DNA of 20,000 bases from an uncultured virus (IMG/VR IMGVR_UViG_3300037424_001060) (taxonomy: Duplodnaviria; Heunggongvirae; Uroviricota; Caudoviricetes): the IMG/VR virus record IMGVR_UViG_3300037424_001060; one strand, written 5' to 3'. Within the stretch, counting starts at the first letter, position 1; each line of letters opens with the position of its first letter. Shown here piece after piece: positions 2,022-17,097 of this stretch. The translations under genes were made by a program, and so were the position numbers. Under the pieces are notes generated by a model, which searched no databases, was not told the DNA's origin, and was given only the letters and a program-made list of their open reading frames with translations.

Positions 2022-2231
2022 TTAGTGTTCCTCCCCGGAAATGTTTCCGGGGCGATGACCCCTTAATGTTTTTCCTTTTCCCTTGTGATCCTTTCGGGGT
2101 GCCATAGACGAGTTTCCCACATATTTCTTCTCGGCTCGATCGGATCTACCGGCCCGCAACACGGTGTCCGGTTTGTAGTGCTTAGAGTAATTACATACCG
2201 GCTTAGGGGTGAAGTCATCTTCGCTTATCAT
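2022..2231 (-). CDS. Small basic hypothetical protein (69 aa)
   Basis: ATGA overlap with the polymerase stop; K/R-rich. Confidence 0.6.
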   Translation of the reverse strand: MISEDDFTPKPVCNYSKHYKPDTVLRAGRSDRAEKKYVGNSSMAPRKDHKGKGKTLRGHRPGNISGEEH

Positions 2232-4945
2232 ATGTATTCTACCAGCCCCTCGTTTTCTTCATATGCTGGTTCTTCGTCCAGCTCTTCCAACTCTTCGATG
2301 TCCATGGGCGCTACATACACGCCATCATCGTACACTTCCTTGATACCGTGTGGGCCTACATGCAGGGTGGCTTCCCCTCCGCCCTTTTTCCCGGCCCAGT
2401 TGTTCATTCGCTTCACCCACTTAATACCAATGAGTGGCACCCGATCGCGATACGATTCTACCACCTCAACAACTATGTCGGCCACCTCATCGGCGTGGTC
2501 TGGATGCGTCACTGTTAACACTTCGTCGTGGATGTTGATAGGGGCCACTATCCATTCGCCGATCCCCGCCGGCTGCAAGTCCCAGATTCGCCGCTGCAAG
2601 TCTTTCGTAATGATGGCACCGGGCGACTGAATCAAGTGGTTATTACCAGCTCGAATGTTAGCGGCCTGTATCTGGAACGCCGCGCCATACAGGGCGGAGG
2701 CCACTGCCCCGGCCGGGGTCTGGTCCTTTTCGCGTCGATTGACCTTGAAGTCCAGGTTGCACCAGTTGCGAGGCACATTGTGTGCCAAGTCAAATAGAGC
2801 CTTCGCTATTTTGTTCTCGATGGTGAAGTATCGGCGGAAGCCTAAGAACGTCTCAATATACTCAGCGGGTTCCTTGTAGGTGATCTTGCCGCCGTCCTCG
2901 TCCTGTGCCAGGGCCCCGAACATTTCCTCTACCCGCTTGCGTGCTTCACGCATGCCAGGATATTTGTTCTGGAAATTCTCGCACGCCATCTCCGCGATCT
3001 TCATCTCGATGTTCAACTTCTTGTTGATCGTAGTATGGTCACCACCATACAGCAGGGCGAACACCGACTGCTTAGCACGCGTGTACATATCGACATCGCC
3101 GCCGTCCTTGAAGCCTTTACTGGCTTTGATCTGTGCTTCGTTCTTATCTGGGTACAGCTCCAATGCCATCAGGGTATGGATGGACTTTCCCGCCAGAAGA
3201 TCCTCACGAAGCCGGGCATCTTGAAACACCGCGTCCGCGAGCGTCACTTCAAATCCGTCGAAGTCACCACCGCACAGGATCATGTCACCCCACATGAGCG
3301 GGAAGCTACTTCGTACTTCCTCGGAGCCCTTGATCCCTTGGGCATTCAGACCGTCGCCGCCCGCCATTCTCGAAGAGAGGGTACCAATCACTTTGAAGCT
3401 GGCGTGGAATCTTCCGGCCTGCAACAACTTACGGTACAGCTCTACTTCCTTCGCGGCTGCTTTGATCTTGAGAATTTCATCCGCCCGCTTCGCCGCGTTG
3501 GTGGGACCCAAGTAGAGAAAGCCTCTGCCGTCACAGCGTGGGCATTCTCCGCCCTCTCCAAGGCAGCGAACACAGAACTCACCCCCCGGCTCACGTCCTG
3601 TGGCGAGACACCGAGGGCACTTGCCGTTGCCTTTACATCCGAGACAAAGCGGGTCCTCTGGTGGCTTTCCATTTTTATCAAGAGGTTCCAGACCGGTCCC
3701 CCCGCAGCGCACACACTTGCAACTTCCTTTGCAATCATGGCACGGCTCGTCGCACAGTGTTGGGTCCAGGGCATCTCTCGGAACGACATACTTGCTCCGT
3801 ATCTTCTCTAAGTTTGCTTTTTTGGTACTCTTGTCAATCAGAGTAGCTTCACTCTCATCCATGACGTGCCGGATGTACGCCTTCACCTGCGCCGGCTTGT
3901 TGATGTTTACTGGAGATGCTTCGAGTACCGATAGGGACTTACGCAACAGCAAATTGATTTGGTCAATGTCGATCGTGAAGCCATGCCACCGAACAGCCGA
4001 CACCATGCAGGCGAGGACAGAGTCATCGTCACCCGCTTCAGGGAATTCGAAGTATTCGTCCAACAGTCTGGTGTAGGTGACGTCGTCGCCGCCGTACTCT
4101 CTTGCTTCAAGATTGTTTCTCCAATGTTCGATGTCACCTTTCAGCAAGGCGGGCCACGCGTAACCTTTCAGCTTCCCTTGCTTGTCAAATACTTTCCACT
4201 CTTTCTCCGCGTTGGACAGACCGAGAGCGAAGGGCACGTGTCCCAGCTCGGTCAGCTTGTGTTGCCGGACAGGATACACTTCCTTGAACGAGTGATAGGT
4301 GGGGTCCAGACCGAGGCAGTGCTGAGCAAGATACTTGAGCCCACGATTTGGCTTGAACTTGAGCGTGACATCCTTGAAGTTGGGATCTACTTGATCTTCC
4401 TTTCCTCGCTTGATTCGATCGTAGATACCCCACTTGGGCGCGTTCTGATTGGCCCTCCCGGCGAACAGAATGCCGTCCAGCTCGATGCGCTTCTCCAGCT
4501 CATCGGCCAGCGGCTTGCACAAAATGGTGGGCACCTTCGTTACACGGATGTCGTGCCGCGACATAAGGGACTGGAACTTACCCTTCCGTGAATGTAACAT
4601 CAGGCAGATGACGTTCTTTGGCTTCAAGCAAGGGCCGTCGCGACCATCCATCTCAGCCTGCGCCAGAACCTCCACCGGCAACTCGCCCGGTATAGCGTCG
4701 GGCGGCAACAGGCGGAACATGGTGTAGATCTTGCAGATGTGAAACATGTCATAGGTGGCGTTGAAAAAGCAAAGAGTGTGCCTCATGAACTCTTCGATCA
4801 ACGCGAGCGTGTCCTTCGCCGGCACGTCCCACAAGTTGTGCAGCACCACAGGACCGTCTTCAAACGCGTATTGTAGCAGCGTGGCGAGTCCGTGGAATCC
4901 GATCGTCTCGCTGTCGATGTAGTAGCAGTCTTTTCTGAATCTCAT
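2228..4945 (-). CDS. polA: Phage family A DNA polymerase with 3'-5' exonuclease and a Cys-rich thumb insertion
   Basis: ExoI IDSET, ExoII FNATYDM, ExoIII YGGDDV; motif A GGDFDGFEV, motif B RAKQSVFALLYGG, motif C IHDEV; acidic C-terminal tail. Confidence 0.93.
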   Translation of the reverse strand: MRFRKDCYYIDSETIGFHGLATLLQYAFEDGPVVLHNLWDVPAKDTLALIEEFMRHTLCFFNATYDMFHICKIYTMFRLLPPDAIPGELPVEVLAQAEMDGRDGPCLKPKNVICLMLHSRKGKFQSLMSRHDIRVTKVPTILCKPLADELEKRIELDGILFAGRANQNAPKWGIYDRIKRGKEDQVDPNFKDVTLKFKPNRGLKYLAQHCLGLDPTYHSFKEVYPVRQHKLTELGHVPFALGLSNAEKEWKVFDKQGKLKGYAWPALLKGDIEHWRNNLEAREYGGDDVTYTRLLDEYFEFPEAGDDDSVLACMVSAVRWHGFTIDIDQINLLLRKSLSVLEASPVNINKPAQVKAYIRHVMDESEATLIDKSTKKANLEKIRSKYVVPRDALDPTLCDEPCHDCKGSCKCVRCGGTGLEPLDKNGKPPEDPLCLGCKGNGKCPRCLATGREPGGEFCVRCLGEGGECPRCDGRGFLYLGPTNAAKRADEILKIKAAAKEVELYRKLLQAGRFHASFKVIGTLSSRMAGGDGLNAQGIKGSEEVRSSFPLMWGDMILCGGDFDGFEVTLADAVFQDARLREDLLAGKSIHTLMALELYPDKNEAQIKASKGFKDGGDVDMYTRAKQSVFALLYGGDHTTINKKLNIEMKIAEMACENFQNKYPGMREARKRVEEMFGALAQDEDGGKITYKEPAEYIETFLGFRRYFTIENKIAKALFDLAHNVPRNWCNLDFKVNRREKDQTPAGAVASALYGAAFQIQAANIRAGNNHLIQSPGAIITKDLQRRIWDLQPAGIGEWIVAPINIHDEVLTVTHPDHADEVADIVVEVVESYRDRVPLIGIKWVKRMNNWAGKKGGGEATLHVGPHGIKEVYDDGVYVAPMDIEELEELDEEPAYEENEGLVEYI

Positions 4946-5286
4946 AAGGCTACACCGTGCTCCAATACTTCAATATCATCGGGGTGAACCAGGAACGACT
5001 TTCCTTCCAGGCGGGTCTTGCACTTGTACAATCGGATGTAGCGCGCCACTTCCAAGCGGGCAGGAACATCAGTATCAGGGCCGTAGAATGAGAAGCGGTC
5101 CCTGCCGGGCATGTACTTGCCAATGGCTCTCTTCACCGACCCCACAACCGTGCAACGAAACGGTGTCACGGCGTCGGTGCGGGTCAACCGCTTGTGGTCA
5201 TCAGAATCATACTCTACACAGGACACCCGGCTGACGATCACTTCATCTCCCAACCGCAGTCCTAGCGGATTCGTCGGGGTCCTCAT
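4942..5286 (-). CDS. Hypothetical protein (probable start MRTP at 5286)
   Basis: ATGA overlaps at both ends. Confidence 0.7.
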   Translation of the reverse strand: MRTPTNPLGLRLGDEVIVSRVSCVEYDSDDHKRLTRTDAVTPFRCTVVGSVKRAIGKYMPGRDRFSFYGPDTDVPARLEVARYIRLYKCKTRLEGKSFLVHPDDIEVLEHGVAL

Positions 5287-5666
5287 CGCAACACCAACTT
5301 GTGAACTTCGACGCGCCATCTTTCTTCTCCATAGCGGCCCCAGACCAGGGTCGGTGAATACTGCGTGGAAGATGTGTAAACCGGCATGTCTCCATAATGT
5401 TTTTCAATTACCGCGACCTGTTCGCGGGCATAGTGCATCGCTGACATTACATCCTTGTAGACGTAGAACTCCGGGTCGCCGTGATCGTCGTACACGTACA
5501 CCAGGAAAATCATGCCGAGGTTCAGCGCCGCCGCGATCTGGTGGGCCACGGAGGTTTCCCAGCATCTGCAAAATGGATTATCGGGGGCATCGGGGTCTTT
5601 TTCCCACACGTCGGATTCGTACGGCTCTTCGTCATATGGCTCGACGCTATACGTCTTTGTCATCAA
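5283..5666 (-). CDS. Hypothetical acidic protein (127 aa)
   Basis: SD GGAG upstream; coupled to its neighbours. Confidence 0.7.
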   Translation of the reverse strand: MMTKTYSVEPYDEEPYESDVWEKDPDAPDNPFCRCWETSVAHQIAAALNLGMIFLVYVYDDHGDPEFYVYKDVMSAMHYAREQVAVIEKHYGDMPVYTSSTQYSPTLVWGRYGEERWRVEVHKLVLR

Positions 5667-5854
5667 ACAGCTCCGGGTGAGGTATGTCGAATGTTCGTTG
5701 TCAGATCATAACCCTTAAAGATTTGCCGGCCGGTGAAATCGACTTGAGTAAGCATGCCATTCGCCGGGTTGCGGTAGATAGGCCAACAACATTTCTGGTA
5801 CAGAATGTACCCGATGGACAACATGAAGTTAATCGTTTTCTGTTGCTCGTTCAT
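5663..5854 (-). CDS. Hypothetical protein (63 aa)
   Basis: ATGA overlaps in the gene string. Confidence 0.6.
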   Translation of the reverse strand: MNEQQKTINFMLSIGYILYQKCCWPIYRNPANGMLTQVDFTGRQIFKGYDLTTNIRHTSPGAV

Positions 5855-6171
5855 ACATACTTCCCCACGTAGTTAGCAGGAAAAGGGTGATGGAAGTAGA
5901 AGATATTATTGTAGTCGAACAACAATTCCTTCACTTCCGTGTATGACTGCCAGCACGGGGCCCAGTCTATCAGGTTCGGAATGTTGGGGTCGGTGTAAAC
6001 TTGCATACACCTTTCACCGGGGACTACTCGAACGGCCTTGATGTTGGGGAACCAGCAAGCCAACAGGGCGTCAAGCTGCGCGTCAAACGAGGCAGACACG
6101 CGACCAGAATACAGGTCGATGAATTCTTTCTCCGCGTCCACCCACAAACTGTGAAATGCCTTTACGCTCAT
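5851..6171 (-). CDS. Hypothetical protein (probable start MSVKAF at 6171)
   Basis: ATGA overlap with the upstream stop at 6168. Confidence 0.65.
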   Translation of the reverse strand: MSVKAFHSLWVDAEKEFIDLYSGRVSASFDAQLDALLACWFPNIKAVRVVPGERCMQVYTDPNIPNLIDWAPCWQSYTEVKELLFDYNNIFYFHHPFPANYVGKYV

Positions 6172-6518
6172 CGGCCGAGGCCCCACTTCAACATCCTAAT
6201 GACTTCCAGAGATGTGTAATATTCTGGGTAACACCGCATCTTGATGCACGACGTGAGGAAAAAAATAGCTACCAGTGACAAGATGGCGGTGAGTACCGAA
6301 AACGCGATGATTACAGGTGGCCGCAAATCATTGGCAATGATACCGCCGACAGACTTGCACGCCCACACCAGCCCGTTCACTGATGCGATCAACATAATTA
6401 CGCTGACCACGAACAGGGTGAACTCGTTGATTAACGCCACCTTGTAGGCTTGCTCGGCGACGGTCGGCAGATCGTTTGTCACAATGCTGCTAAGATATTC
6501 CAGTAAACTTTCCATCAT
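6168..6518 (-). CDS. Membrane protein with two predicted TM helices
   Basis: Hydrophobic stretches FTLFVVSVIMLIASVNGLVWAC and VIIAFSVLTAILSLVAIFFLTSC; SD GGGAG. Confidence 0.75.
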   Translation of the reverse strand: MMESLLEYLSSIVTNDLPTVAEQAYKVALINEFTLFVVSVIMLIASVNGLVWACKSVGGIIANDLRPPVIIAFSVLTAILSLVAIFFLTSCIKMRCYPEYYTSLEVIRMLKWGLGR

Positions 6519-6886
6519 GCAACTCCCAGGGTGGAAAAGAGAACCTTTCGAAGATCGGCCAGATGCGAATCCTTCGCTTCAATGATGGCGTCCTGACGAA
6601 GCGGCTGGGCGGGGCGGTACCCGGCAAACCACAGGGCGTCGAACAGGGATTGAAAACCTCTACCACTCTCGCGGTCGTCCATTCGAATCGCCGGTGGGTT
6701 GTGTTCTCCGGGCGTGTGATCCCGAAACGTAAGCGGGTCGGCCATCTTGACACTTCCGTCGCGCTCGCGCATCATGATGCGGAGTTCTTCGGCCTGCCAC
6801 TCGATACAGTACATCAAATGAAACGCCATCCCCGGCTGATGGGTTTGTGGATACCACAGCATTACATTTTCTCCGTGACGGTACAC
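6515..6886 (-). CDS. Hypothetical phage protein
   Basis: ORF in the gene string. C-terminal FQSLFDALWFAGYRP...HLADLRKVLF resembles a common small phage protein pattern. Start uncertain. Confidence 0.7.
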   Translation of the reverse strand: MYRHGENVMLWYPQTHQPGMAFHLMYCIEWQAEELRIMMRERDGSVKMADPLTFRDHTPGEHNPPAIRMDDRESGRGFQSLFDALWFAGYRPAQPLRQDAIIEAKDSHLADLRKVLFSTLGVA

Positions 6887-7194
6887 TTCATGTGGTCGGG
6901 CGGGACGGGGGCGGCAATGAGTGGTATGGCAACAACATTGTTGTTCTTCAGCCGAACAGCGTTGTGATGCGTTTTGCCGCTGTACATTGGCGGCAGCCGA
7001 TTGGCGAGCAGTTTCTTGTTCTCTCTCGCTTGTGAGGGAGTCAAGTAAGCGTCCCGAAACGTGAACGTCTGAATGTCGTCGCTGTCATAGCCGGCTTCCA
7101 GTGCGTGGGCCCACAGCCCCATCACCTGTGTGAGATACTGCTGTTCGGCGTGCAGCTTGGTGAGACTGTCGAGCACTATTTGAACTTCGCCCAC
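6862..7194 (-). CDS. Hypothetical protein (110 aa)
   Basis: GTG start 2 nt after the upstream stop; co-directional. Confidence 0.65.
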   Translation of the reverse strand: MGEVQIVLDSLTKLHAEQQYLTQVMGLWAHALEAGYDSDDIQTFTFRDAYLTPSQARENKKLLANRLPPMYSGKTHHNAVRLKNNNVVAIPLIAAPVPPDHMKCTVTEKM

Positions 7195-7196
7195 TG

Positions 7197-7502
7197 CTAT
7201 CCCTTTCTGAAGATTGGCTTTTTGTGTACCTTAACTCTATCACACTTTAGGGGATTGTCAAATTCTTTTCCGAAATCCCGGTGAACCAAGTTAGCGACCA
7301 CCATGTTCTCTTCGAGAATCCGTAAAGACTCTTTGGCCCATAATTCAGGCACAAGACAGTCATAGGGATGCGCAAGCGGTGCCACCAATGGGGCAGACGC
7401 TAATACCTCTTTGGTGGGGGTGCTTCCACCAAACACAGGGAGCGGCAGTGCCATTGCTGACACTGCCGCTCCAATCACCCTAAGAAACGATCGTCGCTGC
7501 AT
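7197..7502 (-). CDS. Twin-arginine-signal protein fused to a major-capsid-protein-like N-terminal fragment
   Basis: MQRRSFLRVIGAAVSAMALPLPVFGG (RRxFL plus h-region), then VPELWAKESLRILEENMVVANLVHRDF...DRVKVHKKPIF, resembling the N-terminus of P22-coat-like capsid proteins. Confidence 0.7.
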   Translation of the reverse strand: MQRRSFLRVIGAAVSAMALPLPVFGGSTPTKEVLASAPLVAPLAHPYDCLVPELWAKESLRILEENMVVANLVHRDFGKEFDNPLKCDRVKVHKKPIFRKG

Positions 7503-7506
7503 GTTG

Positions 7507-8262
7507 TTAGATACAGCCAATCATACTGCGAAACAGATTCGACAACCCACTCTCGGTTCCACCGTTAACCGGCTGTTCCTCGGCCGCTACATCCCGAACA
7601 ACAGCGTCCAGCAGAGCAGGGCTGAGCGAGTGAGGGCTAATGTCCCCCTCATTCAACAGCACATAGTTCGAGGCTGCCACAACTGCACCGTGCGGAATGG
7701 GCGCGGACGCCGGGGCGATTACCCCGAAGTGCTTCAGGAACGCCTCTGCCGGGCTGTCCAGAGTGCCGAGAGTGGTGTTGGACGGGATGCCCAGATTGTC
7801 AGCGTCCAGGTCCACGTTCGCCGTGGTCACGGTCATGTAGGCACCGTTAACCGTGGCACCGTTGGCCGTGATTGTGGCGTCGTTCGCCGTCAGGTTGCCG
7901 GTCAGAGCCACATCCACATCACCCGCATTGTAAGTCGCGATGACTGACGAGCCGTCCAGGGCCGTATCAACTGCGGTCTGAATAGCGGCTTCCGCAGCGT
8001 CGTACGCAATGTTGCCGGTCGTGACCGACACGCCATACATCGGGAAACCAATCGTGATCGTGAAATTCCCAGAACTGATCGTATCAGTATGGTTGGGAAT
8101 AACAGCGACGTGTGAAGCCGCCGCGTATGGAGCCGCGAGGGTGGGGTCAGCGATAGTCTGCAAAGCAACTAACTCGTTGTAGACGTGCCGTCCCGGACCC
8201 TTGTCAATCGTGCTACTGATGTTCTTCGAGTTCGCCAGTAGCGTTGCAATAACACCTGCCAT
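7507..8262 (-). CDS. Ala/Thr/Asp-rich probable structural or surface protein
   Basis: Strong SD GGAGGT. Contains GNFTITI...TTGNIAYDAAEAAIQTAVDTAL, resembling a beta-rich repeat of phage tail and surface proteins. Almost no Lys/Arg in the core. Confidence 0.75.
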   Translation of the reverse strand: MAGVIATLLANSKNISSTIDKGPGRHVYNELVALQTIADPTLAAPYAAASHVAVIPNHTDTISSGNFTITIGFPMYGVSVTTGNIAYDAAEAAIQTAVDTALDGSSVIATYNAGDVDVALTGNLTANDATITANGATVNGAYMTVTTANVDLDADNLGIPSNTTLGTLDSPAEAFLKHFGVIAPASAPIPHGAVVAASNYVLLNEGDISPHSLSPALLDAVVRDVAAEEQPVNGGTESGLSNLFRSMIGCI

Positions 8263-8326
8263 GAACAAATACCTCCAGAAAAATGTAACTTCCTTGTCGA
8301 GTTTAAGCGCCCGCCAAGGACGTTAT

Positions 8327-8563
8327 TTACCTAAAGAAACCCAACACAAACCGAATCGCAAAGATGCCGATAGCACCTTGGTACCACGTCAGCGCCGGCA
8401 TTTCCGTGCTTGGCACCAGGAAAATATTCCAGCACCACGCTAACACAATGCCGCCGATACACATAGCAATAATGTTCAGCATCATGATGAGTAGCACGCC
8501 CAAACATCCGGCTAGAACTACCTCAGCTTCATTTGGTTTTGACACATTTGTCCCCTTATGCAA
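8327..8563 (-). CDS. Small membrane protein (start may be GTG at 8545)
   Basis: Two hydrophobic segments, with WNIFLVP...LTWYQGAIGIFAI. Confidence 0.7.
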   Translation of the reverse strand: MHKGTNVSKPNEAEVVLAGCLGVLLIMMLNIIAMCIGGIVLAWCWNIFLVPSTEMPALTWYQGAIGIFAIRFVLGFFR

Positions 8564-13015: not shown

Positions 13016-13396
13016 TTAGACTCTCCAAAGAGAGCCGAACAAGTCCTGGATGGACACCGGTCGATGGTCCGCGATTTCTCGCAGCGTCTCGAAACAATAC
13101 TCGCCCTGGTATAGCAGCTTGGCCTGCTCAAGTCCGTATTCCATACAGAAGGACTTTGTCGCAAAGTAGCCGATAGACTCGTCGTCTATACGAATGTCAT
13201 GCACCTTCCATGCCTCGTCGCAGAGCACCGACACAACATGATAGTCGTCCTCGCTATCGTGATGCCAGCTAAGATCGTTCAGCATCCTAATGATAGTGTC
13301 GGGAACGCCCTCGTTGGTTTCGTCGCTGGCGTAATAATGCACAGCACCTTCCACAGAAAGAACAGCGCATACGAAGTTGTTGTCTTCATTCATCAA
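13016..13396 (-). CDS. Hypothetical acidic protein
   Basis: SD AGGA; overlaps the helicase stop. Confidence 0.7.
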   Translation of the reverse strand: MMNEDNNFVCAVLSVEGAVHYYASDETNEGVPDTIIRMLNDLSWHHDSEDDYHVVSVLCDEAWKVHDIRIDDESIGYFATKSFCMEYGLEQAKLLYQGEYCFETLREIADHRPVSIQDLFGSLWRV

Positions 13397-15278
13397 AGAT
13401 TTCCTGTAGCTCGCCCAGAGTCATGGATTCTAACCGTCGGTTGTCTCGCAAAACAGCAAGGACTTTACGATCCGAGGACAGGTGAAACAAGTCCACGATC
13501 GTTGCCCCTTTATTCTCGTCAATGCCAGGGCGATGTATGCGGTCTTCGGCCTGCATGCGCGATTCTGGTGTGTAGTCGTTCGAATAAAATACGGCCATTC
13601 TCGATTCGGTGAGAGTGAGGCCCATACCGCCGGACGCGGGGTGGGCGACGAACGCCACACGCTCATTGTGCAGGTTGGCCCAGTAGTCCAGGGGCTTGAT
13701 ATCTCTATCAACTGGCTCCCCATCGTGCCGTAGAATTTTCCATCCGCGACCGTCAACTTTCACAACGTCCCAGCACTCGTTGTGGCACATCTTAACAATC
13801 TTGTCCACGGAGCCTTGGAAGCCGGCGAAGATAACAATTCGACCTTGATCTTCATTCTCTTCCAGTAGGTCACGAATCGCTTCATCCTTGGGGCACTTCA
13901 GTTCCTTCGTCTCGCGCACCATGTGGGGTACCTTGCCCGTGCCCTCGCACTTCTCGCAGGTAGCCATTTCCTTAATGGGGTCGCAGGTTAGGTCCGTGTA
14001 GTCCCACTGTTCGCAAACTCCAGAGCCCTTGCACACCGGGCACTCTTCCTCGCCTTCCTGTTTCTCTCGATACTGGAATCCGTCCGACAATTCACGAAGC
14101 CAAGTGATTCCCTGGATGGCTGATTCAGCGGCGGATACAAGAGCCTTGGCAACACGCTTTAGAGTCGGGGTTGGCTCAAGAGTAACCTCCCGATAGATCT
14201 TATCGGGAATATCCAGGCAGTCCTTTTTCTTCAGGACCAGAACCAGACCAGCCAACCGTTCGTGCAGATAGGCCACTTCGTTGATTGACTCGACCCACTC
14301 GTGTGAATTTTCGCCAACGCCAAAGATGTCATCCATCTCGTGCTTCGGGTGCTCGGCCAACTCTCCGCACACATTGCACTTACGCGAGTCGTCGCGCCAC
14401 GTGACACGCTTCCAGAAGTCGCCTTGATCGGCGGTTTTCTTCTGTTCAAAGATGGCCAGTCTCCATTCAAAGGCTTTCGCCGAGCCTTCCTTCAAGAAGC
14501 CGGGAGCTACCACTTCACACTGCGACCACCAGTCCACCGGGGATTTTGGCGCAGGCGTGCCAGACATGCAAATGACATAGCCGTCCCAGCCATATTCGTT
14601 GCGGATGGCGTCGGCTACCCACATGCCGGCCTTTGTTCGCTTGGCACTGGAAGATTTTAACCGAGATGACTCGTCAAAGATGATGCCCTTCGGAGCGGGC
14701 ATACCGGCTTCCCACTGCTCTACTTCGATGCGGAGCCGTTCATAGGTCATGACGCGGGGTTGTACTCGGAGCCCCCACTTGTCCCACTCGCGCTCGACAG
14801 CAGCGATACCGGACTTGGGAGCAACATACCACCAGTCCAGGACACCCGATTGTTCCATTAACTCGATGGCTGACAGTGATTTACCAACACCCATTTCAGC
14901 CGCCAGGAGCTGATAGTGGTAGGTCAACATGCAGTCTGTCATCCGCTTCTGGTGGTCAAACAGCGGGCGACTGTACCCCCAATTTCGCAGGGGTTGTTCC
15001 CAGTTGGCGTACGGGTTGCCACCGGTCATGAAGTCGATCTGGAAGTTGTTTCGACAACAATCTTCCACCGACCACAGCTTACGTCCATCCCCGTCAATGC
15101 GCTGGTGGAACCGGCTCCCACGCATGGCCTTAATCTCGTCCTTCAGCTCGAAGGGTGTCGTGTTATGCCTACCGTGTGTATGCCACAAGATGCGGCCGTC
15201 CACACGCTCAAGATCAACAGGGTAGTAGTATTGAGTACCCTTCTTTGTCTCTTTGATTATGCGGATGGATTCAATCAT
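13386..15278 (-). CDS. SNF2-like superfamily 2 DNA helicase
   Basis: Walker A EMGVGKS, Walker B IIFDESS, motif III SGTP, motif V SGGMGLTL, motif VI QAEDRIHRPG; Cys-rich inserts. Confidence 0.93.
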   Translation of the reverse strand: MIESIRIIKETKKGTQYYYPVDLERVDGRILWHTHGRHNTTPFELKDEIKAMRGSRFHQRIDGDGRKLWSVEDCCRNNFQIDFMTGGNPYANWEQPLRNWGYSRPLFDHQKRMTDCMLTYHYQLLAAEMGVGKSLSAIELMEQSGVLDWWYVAPKSGIAAVEREWDKWGLRVQPRVMTYERLRIEVEQWEAGMPAPKGIIFDESSRLKSSSAKRTKAGMWVADAIRNEYGWDGYVICMSGTPAPKSPVDWWSQCEVVAPGFLKEGSAKAFEWRLAIFEQKKTADQGDFWKRVTWRDDSRKCNVCGELAEHPKHEMDDIFGVGENSHEWVESINEVAYLHERLAGLVLVLKKKDCLDIPDKIYREVTLEPTPTLKRVAKALVSAAESAIQGITWLRELSDGFQYREKQEGEEECPVCKGSGVCEQWDYTDLTCDPIKEMATCEKCEGTGKVPHMVRETKELKCPKDEAIRDLLEENEDQGRIVIFAGFQGSVDKIVKMCHNECWDVVKVDGRGWKILRHDGEPVDRDIKPLDYWANLHNERVAFVAHPASGGMGLTLTESRMAVFYSNDYTPESRMQAEDRIHRPGIDENKGATIVDLFHLSSDRKVLAVLRDNRRLESMTLGELQEIFDE

Positions 15279-15752: not shown

Positions 15753-16499
15753 CTACATTTCGTCCATGAAAATATCCCAGGTTCCTCTGGTACGATTATA
15801 TTTCTTCGATTTTACCATGAACCGTGTGCCCGACCTAAACAAGACTTCATTCTCTTCCGAGAAGTTTGAAACCTTCTCAATCCATTTCCCCGTCTTAGAT
15901 TTGATTACAAAGCGGGTTTGTCCCTCGTCTGCCCCCTCGAACGGTCGATACGACGGTGTGGAACTTCGACTGGTGCTAACAAACTCTTTCAGAACAACGG
16001 GTTTACCAGGGACGTAGGCGTCCGCAAGTGTGGCGCTACGATCATTTATTGTTCGGTATACCTGCCCTTCGTAGTTTCTTACTTTGTCCAGCGATGCGTT
16101 CAATTCATTCTTGAATGCCCCGGCCCGCTTCACATAGTCCGCGATTACGGCATCACTTTCTCCTGACAGTTCTAATGTCTGCTTGAATCCTTTCGGGTCG
16201 TATATCGAACGATTCAGTTTCTCGGCGTTCAATCCTTTGAATCTCTCACCGCCCATTATGTGCCCACCAGAGTAGGCTGTTATCGGCTGTATATCGGCAC
16301 CTGGAAGATGCTCGACATTTTTTCCGGGGCCGGTCAACACTCCACCTGGATTAAGAACAGGGTCTTCGGAATCACTGTGATAGCCGGGATTTCTAACAGC
16401 CGGCGGAACCTTCTCCACGGCACCGCCACCGGCACCGCCACCACCGCCACCAGATCTACCTCCGCCGCCGCCTCCGCCAGTTCCGCTACCCTTGGGCAT
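15753..16499 (-). CDS. R-S-E class mono-ADP-ribosyltransferase (VIP2/Alt/Mod-like) with a poly-Gly N-terminal leader
   Basis: YEGQVYR (catalytic R), EFVSTSRS (STS), SNFSEENEVLFRSGTRF (ExE). Start MPKGSGTGGGGGGG at 16499 with SD GAGGT. Confidence 0.88.
   Translation of the reverse strand: MPKGSGTGGGGGGGRSGGGGGGAGGGAVEKVPPAVRNPGYHSDSEDPVLNPGGVLTGPGKNVEHLPGADIQPITAYSGGHIMGGERFKGLNAEKLNRSIYDPKGFKQTLELSGESDAVIADYVKRAGAFKNELNASLDKVRNYEGQVYRTINDRSATLADAYVPGKPVVLKEFVSTSRSSTPSYRPFEGADEGQTRFVIKSKTGKWIEKVSNFSEENEVLFRSGTRFMVKSKKYNRTRGTWDIFMDEM
16420..16490. repeat. Low-complexity (CCG/CCA)n tract encoding the poly-Gly leader
   Basis: caccgccaccggcaccgccaccaccgccacc...ccgccgccgcctccgcc encodes GSGTGGGGGGGRSGGGGGGAGGG. 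Confidence 0.8.
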
Positions 16500-17097
16500 C
16501 AGACACCTCGCGTGACGCGTTTCGAGCGTCGGGGACATTTACAAGGTCACACAGGCTGCAAAAGTCTCTGACCAATGGCCCGCCACCATACACCAGGAAG
16601 TTGAGCTGGTTGCCACAGGCTCGCTCGGTGGCTTGATCTAATTGTTCTCTCAGCATGTCGATCTGATCGTCGCATGCGGAGGTTGAATAGGATGGCCAAC
16701 CGTCCGGGACACCTAGCAAATTGATGCCCGCGAACTTCGGGGCGACATTCATATCGACGAAGATATTCATGCCGGCCGACTGCCAGAACCGAGCCATCCA
16801 TCGCTTCATGTAAATACGCCAGATACCGACCGCCATTGGCATTTGATCGTCAGTGGTGTAGTTGGCCTCACAGCAATTGTAGGCCTTCGTCTTCAGGACA
16901 GCATCTGGGTGCTTCCACAGTGCCGTGAACTTCTCGTCGTCGACATAGAAGTGCCATGTGCCTCGCATGCGGGATTTCCGTGAGACGGAACCCCAGCCGC
17001 GCACCGGCAAATCCACAAACGTGCCATGTCTCTCGAACATGAGCATCGGGATTTCCAGGTGGTTGTCTGTCGGAAACAAGCAATCAGGCACTCTCAT
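16486..17097 (-). CDS. DUF4417-family protein
   Basis: DNHLEIPML, WHFYVDDEKF, ANYT, IYMKRWMARFWQSAG, GVP and LVYGG match the DUF4417 pattern as I recall it. Confidence 0.8.
   Translation of the reverse strand: MRVPDCLFPTDNHLEIPMLMFERHGTFVDLPVRGWGSVSRKSRMRGTWHFYVDDEKFTALWKHPDAVLKTKAYNCCEANYTTDDQMPMAVGIWRIYMKRWMARFWQSAGMNIFVDMNVAPKFAGINLLGVPDGWPSYSTSACDDQIDMLREQLDQATERACGNQLNFLVYGGGPLVRDFCSLCDLVNVPDARNASREVSDAQG

Follow-up and report, generated by a model that had tools for sequence, protein, structure and literature searches.

A short conserved stretch of a capsid protein can be active on its own, as is the case for the Gol peptide of T4 gp23, which is sensed by the Lit protease. Among P22-type coat proteins (PF11651), gp5 of P22 has an N-arm (residues 2-30) that is a helix in the procapsid, where its residues D14, E15 and E18 bind R293 and K296 of the C-terminal helix-loop-helix of the scaffolding protein (PMC9965877). 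Coat-scaffold contacts are also the target of CpmB of SaPI1, a small accessory protein described as an alternative scaffold that competes with the scaffold of the helper phage (PMC5644958). In regard to protein export, twin-arginine translocation (Tat) has been reported to carry folded complexes, including partners devoid of a leader that travel with the leader-bearing subunit, a process known as hitchhiking (PMC4273604). The gene described here is located in a stretch of 20,000 nucleotides (nt) from an uncultured virus of the Caudoviricetes (IMG/VR record IMGVR_UViG_3300037424_001060), referred to as the window. It is an intact accessory phage gene, in which a Tat-consensus leader is joined through a flexible linker to a free-standing helix of the P22-type capsid N-arm. 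In the explanation that we favour, with a probability of about 0.35, the encoded mini-protein of 101 amino acids (aa) would be directed to Tat as a mimic of the N-arm; bound to the natural partner of the arm, by analogy to P22 the scaffolding protein, it would titrate, mislocalise or co-export this partner.

Each of the described systems resembles the mini-protein in part. The Gol peptide belongs to an unrelated capsid family, is a part of the full capsid protein and has no leader, whereas the mini-protein is encoded by a separate gene and has one. With the P22-type coat protein it shares homologous residues (approximately 46-98) and a predicted helix such as that of the P22 procapsid (PMC9965877), but it represents the arm only, complemented with an export-type leader and with Lys or Arg at two helix positions. 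Tat substrates (TIGR01409, PF10518; hitchhiker complexes such as PaoABC) have in common with it the RRxFLK consensus, the short N-terminal region (n-region) and the Ala/Gly-rich hydrophobic region (h-region), while the mini-protein differs in being phage-encoded and in having as passenger a virion-protein fragment of about 50 residues instead of a cofactor enzyme. Like CpmB, it is a small accessory protein that, as proposed here, would reuse an assembly-interaction motif against coat-scaffold contacts; however, CpmB mimics the scaffold side and acts in the cytoplasm, while the mini-protein copies the coat side behind an export leader, and we saw no context of size redirection or piracy around it. 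Full-text literature searches on Tat signals, phage capsids and decoys returned no description of genes combining a Tat leader with a capsid N-arm, and in a 2026 Tat review phages are mentioned four times, always in other contexts. The family was thus found in no paper, and its kin are Tat substrates on one side and mimics of assembly motifs on the other.

The open reading frame (ORF) of the mini-protein is located on the minus strand, which the sequence-only reading of the window had not stated, with its ATG at 7502-7500 and its TAG stop codon at 7199-7197. The succession of elements given in that reading, namely an RRSFL motif, an h-region, a Pro/Ala linker, a tail of about 50 aa and a stop codon, reads as it had been quoted: MQRRSFLR is followed by the uncharged stretch IGAAVSAMALPLPVFGGSTPT, by the Pro/Ala linker, and then by VPELWAKESLRILEENMVVANLVHRDFGKEF...DRVKVHKKPIF (Table 1).

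In regard to the origin of the C-terminal part, the resemblance to the N-arm of P22-like coat proteins, stated in the sequence-only reading, was borne out by both profile and pairwise searches, all of which point to capsid homology. Residues 51-98 match positions 8-53 of 385 in the PHROG 283 profile, annotated as major head protein (E 4.5e-4), and tblastn matched the N-terminal ends of Gordonia and Streptomyces phage proteins that are annotated as major capsid proteins. Furthermore, BLASTP aligned the mini-protein with a capsid protein of 470 aa at 53% identity over 55 aa (E 2e-16). The same 470-aa protein scores 96.5 bits on the Pfam family PF11651 (P22_CoatProtein), with which the window protein itself gave no match at E<=1. 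The payload is a truncated copy that includes the N-arm together with the first part of the strand after it, where DRVKVHKKP represents a degenerate counterpart of GDVVNTRKP in capsid proteins. AlphaFold2 (AF2), provided with the family alignment, predicted a helix for residues 46-77, with a predicted local distance difference test (pLDDT) of 91-94 for residues 51-70, and a second helix for residues 3-18 of the leader; the two are separated by a disordered linker and are all that the model holds. A complete HK97 fold, with E-loop, P-domain with spine helix and A-domain, was not found in the window protein, which ends about 45 residues past the start of the N-arm. Without the E-loop hairpin, the P-domain and the A-domain it cannot build a shell, and it is a capsid fragment, not a capsid protein. 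A Pfam match named GPI (E 0.0045; present in 6 of 54 aligned family members) was judged spurious, as it is below the cut-off and overlies the N-arm helix, and a search of the ESM Atlas with the window protein gave nothing above the noise level.

Table 1. Coordinates of the mini-protein gene, its parts and other features of the window
Feature	Position	Strand	Description
Whole mini-protein gene	7197..7502	minus	101 codons and TAG stop
Twin-arginine (Tat-type) leader	7431..7502	minus	residues 1-24, MQRRSFLRVIGAAVSAMALPLPVF; motif M-Q-RR-S-F-L-R, then uncharged h-region VIGAAVSAMALPLPVF
Pro/Ala/Thr-rich linker	7368..7430	minus	residues 25-45; AF2 pLDDT 55-58, no secondary structure; length varies among homologues
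Capsid-derived part	7209..7367	minus	residues 46-98; N-arm helix 46-77 (PELWAKESLRILEENMVVANLVHRDF) and degenerate next capsid segment
mRNA stem-loop	7439..7472	minus	15-bp near-perfect stem with 4-nt loop; inside the leader-coding region, encloses the internal ATG (codon 17)
Hypervariable island	4945..8556		3.6 kb of small ORFs between exonuclease and DNA polymerase genes
ORF with partial PHROG 595 match	15753..16538	minus	261 aa
DNA polymerase	2228..4945	minus	cysteine runs at about residues 400-480
Helicase	13386..15278	minus	cysteine runs at about residues 423-455

The N-terminal part has the build of a Tat leader. Q-R-R-S-F-L-R at residues 2-8 fits the Tat consensus S/T-R-R-x-F-L-K, and the 21 uncharged residues of the h-region reach a best Kyte-Doolittle mean of 1.92 over 12 residues and of 1.81 over 19 residues. 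The leader is kept as protein in homologues, as exemplified by P0009, which aligns with the window protein from residue 1 at 61% identity. In an alignment of 54 members (A2), where the invariance of RR is circular because members were selected for it, the leader consensus is RRxFLK, and positions +3, +4 and +5 are occupied by F, L and K in 41, 47 and 30 members, respectively. The uncharged stretch has a median length of 15.5 aa in these members, and the h-region is moderately hydrophobic, rich in Ala and Gly, and ends in Pro. The n-region has a median of 3 aa, because of which the ATG is preferred over an alternative TTG start that is possible six codons upstream. At E<=0.1, TIGR01409 matches 34 and PF10518 matches 25 of the 54 members, with best values of 4.5e-6 and 3.1e-6, respectively, and some relatives pass cut-offs of this type where the window copy fails, as P0077 does with 25.1 bits. 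A16-M17-A18 could be a signal-peptidase site, but it would make the leader very short, and no conserved AxA was found in the alignment of 54 members. Since the leader matches the Tat consensus, targeting to TatBC is its natural reading.

The fusion is not confined to the window. When 1.84 billion representatives were searched exhaustively with HMMER, 135 proteins were obtained at E<=1e-3, and 138 retrieved proteins were sorted by regular expressions for the RR leader and the N-arm. In at least 53 of the 138, the N-arm is preceded by an RR leader: 43 with fewer than 150 residues after the start of the arm, five with 186-286 residues after it, and five that were missed by the regular expressions and recognised by eye (P0039, P0049, P0050, P0123 and P0126). 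Further ORFs combining RRxFL with a capsid fragment were therefore found, and the fusion is not unique. The remaining proteins comprise 19 capsid proteins of full size (at least 400 aa), 48 proteins below 400 aa with an N-arm and no RR motif, which are mostly capsid fragments with a few leader-truncated calls among them (e.g. P0003, P0012 and P0026), and 18 proteins with no match to the expressions, most of which are capsid proteins, or pieces of them, whose motif is a variant one. Members of the family follow the pattern of an RR leader, a linker of variable length and an N-arm helix of the type PExWAxESLxILEENMV..LVHRDF, with a total length of about 63-190 aa. The window protein conforms to this pattern, and its alignment with P0009-P0018, among others, begins at residue 1 (E 3e-18 to 1e-9), while in P0077, P0082, P0105 and P0139 a leader of this kind precedes an N-arm of another type. 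Of 34 loci retrieved with a degenerate DNA pattern (RRxFL, gap, PExWA), one was real, the already known contig L004, and 33 were chance matches; a host search in bacterial genomes ended with three weak and uninformative matches in metagenome bins.

The family is large, diverse and kept by selection. The homologues of L084 and L085 are distinguished by 14 synonymous changes and 2 non-synonymous ones over 127 codons, corresponding to a ratio of non-synonymous to synonymous substitution rates (dN/dS) of 0.038 and to strong purifying selection in this pair, and their sole indel, of 15 codons (15 aa), is in-frame and placed in the linker. With dN/dS coming from one pair of homologues, selection on the window copy itself is what we infer from the family. 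These data bear on the alternative that the gene is a decayed duplicate, a split capsid gene or an annotation artefact, with no function, the first of which had been raised in the sequence-only reading for the case of a unique fusion not under purifying selection. The degenerate C-terminal tail of the window copy could be taken as a sign of decay. Likewise, an artefact could be suspected from public gene calls of the identical sequence (P0002, 85 aa; Atlas record), which begin at codon 17 and miss the RR leader (codons 1-17, window 7452-7502); the record of the closest homologue, P0003 (84 aa, 78% identical), also begins at an internal Met and is without the RR leader. However, homologues retain the leader at the protein level, and a decayed duplicate is contradicted by 53 further members and by the dN/dS of the one measured pair, so that neither uniqueness nor a lack of purifying selection was found. 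A split or recoded capsid gene is ruled out, as reading through the TAG meets stops of all three kinds; in addition, profile searches detected no capsid similarity in the ORFs downstream of the mini-protein, and the capsid gene of relatives is intact elsewhere. This alternative is thus scarcely credible. Gene callers overlook the family, often starting at an internal Met so that the leader is lost, as happened with the window gene, and automatic annotation probably under-counts its members.

A comparison of positions between 46 distinct mini-protein segments and 68 distinct capsid segments revealed near-equal conservation at almost every position of the helix. At positions +2 and +6 from Trp, on the other hand, Lys or Arg is present in 63% and 52% of the mini-proteins versus 3% and 3% of the capsid proteins, which have Gln/Asn and Ala at these sites. 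In the window protein these residues are K57 and R61. The two sites are one helical turn apart and adjoin conserved glutamates. Judged from the sequences, the gain of Lys/Arg would suit a helix adapted to standing alone and being soluble on its own. Given this signature, the mini-proteins are not recent duplicates of the capsid gene of each individual phage, with which the N-arm of P0016 agrees, being closer to the capsid protein of another phage than to that of its own. The nearest neighbours on a 33-residue segment, which were another mini-protein in 22 of 47 cases, a capsid protein in 17 and tied in 8, are uninformative on the origin of the family.

Apart from its charged positions, the helix retains a hydrophobic face formed by W55, L60, I62, L63, M67, V68, L72 and V73. 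Such a face is at the basis of another possible explanation, according to which, once the leader has engaged TatBC, translocation would be arrested by the amphipathic helix with its exposed hydrophobic face. The outcome would be a membrane leak or a block of host Tat export, serving takeover, exclusion or the timing of lysis; the capsid origin of the helix would then be incidental, or the arrest would depend on a partner that covers the hydrophobic face. Fusions of Tat leaders with exposed hydrophobic passengers are described as stopping transport at a late stage and causing growth defects (PMC13673990, citing Richter and Bruser 2005/2007). However, the Lys/Arg gain lowers the exposed hydrophobicity, and jamming of the translocon leaves unexplained why, in more than 50 clusters, about 27 consecutive residues stay almost identical to the consensus of the capsid proteins. 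We consider this explanation very unlikely.

The favoured explanation, that of a Tat-directed N-arm mimic, would involve several steps. The host Tat pathway would recognise the leader and bring the protein to the cytoplasmic membrane, where it would be exported, or anchored by the uncleaved leader. The helix, mimicking the N-arm of the capsid protein, would bind whatever normally binds the arm, and the bound partner could be titrated, mislocalised or co-exported by hitchhiking. The likeliest partner would be the scaffolding protein, bound through its basic C-terminal helix-turn-helix. The scaffold is favoured because the P22 scaffold docks on the N-arm and because in this phage group a scaffold gene with a basic C-terminus accompanies the capsid gene: tblastn located it directly upstream of the capsid gene in 98 loci, with a conserved and basic C-terminus of the encoded protein. 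The acidic counterparts in the mini-protein helix could be the conserved glutamates E53, E58, E64 and E65. Regarding the passenger, Tat is reported to tolerate small unstructured passengers and flexible linkers if they are without exposed hydrophobic stretches, and to arrest on exposed hydrophobic ones (PMC13673990). As an optional gene, presumably expressed in the early or middle phase, the mini-protein gene would modulate or sabotage capsid assembly, either that of rival relatives or that of its own phage before the late genes are expressed.

Several observations weigh against this explanation. The window leader stays below the curated cut-offs, with 13.3 versus 16.7 bits for TIGR01409 (E 0.083) and 15.1 versus 22.7 bits for PF10518 (E 0.022). 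A profile comparison with P22 gp5 by hhalign aligned only the C-terminus (E 0.12) and not the N-arm, leaving the scaffold-contact residues of P22 unmapped on the mini-protein, and the added Lys/Arg could mask the very acidic face on which the analogy to P22 relies. Binding to the scaffold is a prediction by analogy, and the window phage presumably uses the capsid family of its relatives. In P0016, the N-arm (33 residues) is 76% identical to the capsid protein of its own phage and 82% identical to that of another phage. Moreover, the mini-protein is the only gene common to the window, L004 and L084, with no conserved adjoining partner gene. Finally, an exported payload would end in the periplasm, away from both scaffold and capsid, unless binding precedes export. 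Of the three putative functions put forward in the sequence-only reading, namely a decoy, a dominant-negative block on the assembly of competitors and a membrane anchor for procapsids, the last fits poorly, as the exported payload would be on the periplasmic side.

Regarding the genomic setting, the window represents a replication module with genes for DNA polymerase, SNF2-type helicase, exonuclease, nuclease, ParB-like protein, HNH endonuclease and methyltransferase, and no capsid, portal or terminase genes were found in its 20 kb. The earlier statement that the gene lies far from any morphogenesis genes holds for these three, but not entirely, since a 261-aa ORF 8 kb away (Table 1) gave a partial match to PHROG 595, annotated as head maturation protease (E 8e-13). 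This match covers residues 128-246 on profile positions 392-499 of 513 and is the only one in the window with a morphogenesis label. All neighbours of the mini-protein gene share the minus strand, resulting in an operon-like run: the stop of an upstream 253-aa ORF is 4 nt before the ATG of the mini-protein, and the next ORF begins at 7194, 2 nt past its TAG. The 253-aa ORF was considered as a partner or a second capsid fragment and rejected, having no capsid similarity (E 0.19), no lead in the Atlas, and a homologue in L139, where the mini-protein is missing.

The surrounding hypervariable island (Table 1) has a length of about 1-3 kb and other content in 12 relatives. These are IMG/VR contigs that share the exonuclease at 51-70% identity, most of them preserving the order of methyltransferase, 630-aa protein, exonuclease, variable region and polymerase. 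Among the ORFs of the island, only those of 253, 110, 123 and 125 aa have a homologue in these 12 contigs, each in one relative, and the mini-protein is absent from the exonuclease-polymerase gap in all 12. Ten of these 12 records were also searched over their full length with the window protein. In six of them there was a single match, which falls in an open frame of 447-558 aa, the capsid gene, and the four without a match are incomplete records (26-79% completeness); a second match was found in none of the ten, and in all four complete genomes the capsid gene was the only match. The payload hence derives from a capsid family that is in use among the relatives of the window phage, whose intact capsid gene is located at another place in the genome, while the mini-protein gene is optional, i.e., accessory, in this phage group.

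An optional gene in a variable early island is the typical pattern of counter-defence genes, and known defence sensors (CapRel, Avs, Lit/Gol) detect capsid, portal and terminase proteins. The mini-protein could accordingly be a decoy, or antagonist, that shows a conserved capsid stretch to a sensor of host defence and occupies it without activation, with the Tat leader dragging the complex to the membrane or clearing the decoy before the late genes are expressed. Both its placement as a small accessory gene among early and replication genes, absent from the 12 syntenic places and from the four complete related genomes, and the choice of payload would agree with such a role, since no other segment of the capsid family is as well conserved as the payload (with two peptide patterns of the N-arm and nothing else, 300 capsid loci were retrieved). 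On the other hand, we know of no defence system that senses the P22-type N-arm, export would take the decoy away from cytoplasmic sensors, and a dN/dS of 0.04 in the one measured pair gives no sign of an arms race. We regard a decoy as unlikely, though deserving of some weight.

Other loci with the mini-protein add to this picture. P0016 is encoded in G001, a sequence of 136.5 kb with terminal repeats, between ORFs of 232 aa and 206 aa and just downstream of a 914-aa ORF. The same genome has its own PF11651 capsid gene 15 kb away, with a scaffold gene upstream of it, and P0016 is 67% identical to the encoded capsid protein over 48 aa.

In L084, which carries the homologue P0004, two more ORFs with an RRxFL leader were observed on the plus strand, at 3455-3907 and 6357-6863 of that contig, one of them beginning 3 nt past the stop of the mini-protein; their payloads are unrelated and have no PHROG match. 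Such neighbours suggest a cassette of exported proteins, and can be brought into connection with a function in the periplasm or envelope that has no relation to assembly, for example superinfection exclusion, in which the helix, once exported or anchored, would have its target in the envelope. The positive-inside rule would place the payload outside, as this possibility requires. However, no envelope-related domain was found, the two neighbouring ORFs of L084 match no PHROG family, and the conservation of the helix mirrors the constraints of the capsid protein itself, which makes an envelope function quite unlikely in our view.

If the explanation by a Tat-directed mimic of a capsid element is true, phages would use the host export of folded proteins in order to dispose of or mislocalise proteins, a tactic that we found in no paper. 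The mini-proteins would at the same time provide minimal ligands of natural origin, either for the contacts between coat and scaffold or for defences that sense capsids. It is also conceivable, although on the whole improbable, that they belong to an unrecognised class of accessory genes, present in many phage lineages, in which Tat leaders are placed on short conserved interaction elements of the phages' own morphogenetic proteins, in the present case on the scaffold-docking N-arm of the coat protein. Each product would act as a tow-rope: bound to a cytoplasmic partner, such as an assembly protein of a rival or an immune sensor of the host by which the element is recognised, it would follow the hitchhiker route and drag this partner to the Tat translocon or across it. 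Such a mechanism would represent a new mode of warfare between phages, or between phage and host, by way of the sole export pathway able to carry folded complexes.

Besides the short forms, seven long relatives of 241-394 aa (P0044, P0047, P0061, P0065, P0097, P0104 and P0126) consist of the leader, a linker and most of the capsid protein, with the record of P0065 beginning inside the leader. Their linkers are helical and 40-80 residues long, four of the seven pass the PF11651 cut-off, and most are without the insertion of about 170 columns found in the capsid family. P0061, the only long form modelled, gave a complete HK97 fold (pLDDT 83.3, predicted template modelling score 0.70), and Foldseek matched this model to the capsid of mycobacteriophage Douge (E 1e-13), to the P22 procapsid 8i1v (template modelling score 0.54) and to encapsulins. 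In regard to the genomic context of the long forms, the seven loci found with P0061 were all ordinary full-size capsid genes. In five short forms (P0004, P0005, P0025, P0035 and P0042), the extreme C-terminal motif of the capsid protein, LD..L..V.LG, directly follows the N-arm region. Taken together, short and long forms give the impression of a series of reductions, with the N-arm as the part that is retained throughout. Some of the long forms repeat the C-terminal LD..L..V.LG motif.

Several further records among the retrieved proteins depart from the family pattern. P0022, P0045, P0079, P0112 and P0124 (58-79 aa) are short N-arm proteins with no visible RR leader, of which at least P0079 has the Lys signature of the mini-proteins; these may be versions devoid of a leader, or else result from truncated gene calls. 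P0055 (362 aa) runs from the scaffolding protein across the intergenic region into the capsid N-arm, and is probably a frameshifted or mis-called record.

At the mRNA level, the stem-loop within the leader-coding region of the window gene (Table 1) has a folding energy of -31.3 kcal/mol (z -4.46), and none of 200 shuffled sequences was as stable. The same region in the homologues of L004, L084 and L085 folds less strongly (-24 to -31 kcal/mol per 60 nt) and has no obvious conserved shape, and the stem may be incidental. Elsewhere in the window, runs of cysteines resembling CxxCxGxG, similar to zinc fingers of the DnaJ type as judged by eye, were observed in both the DNA polymerase and the helicase.

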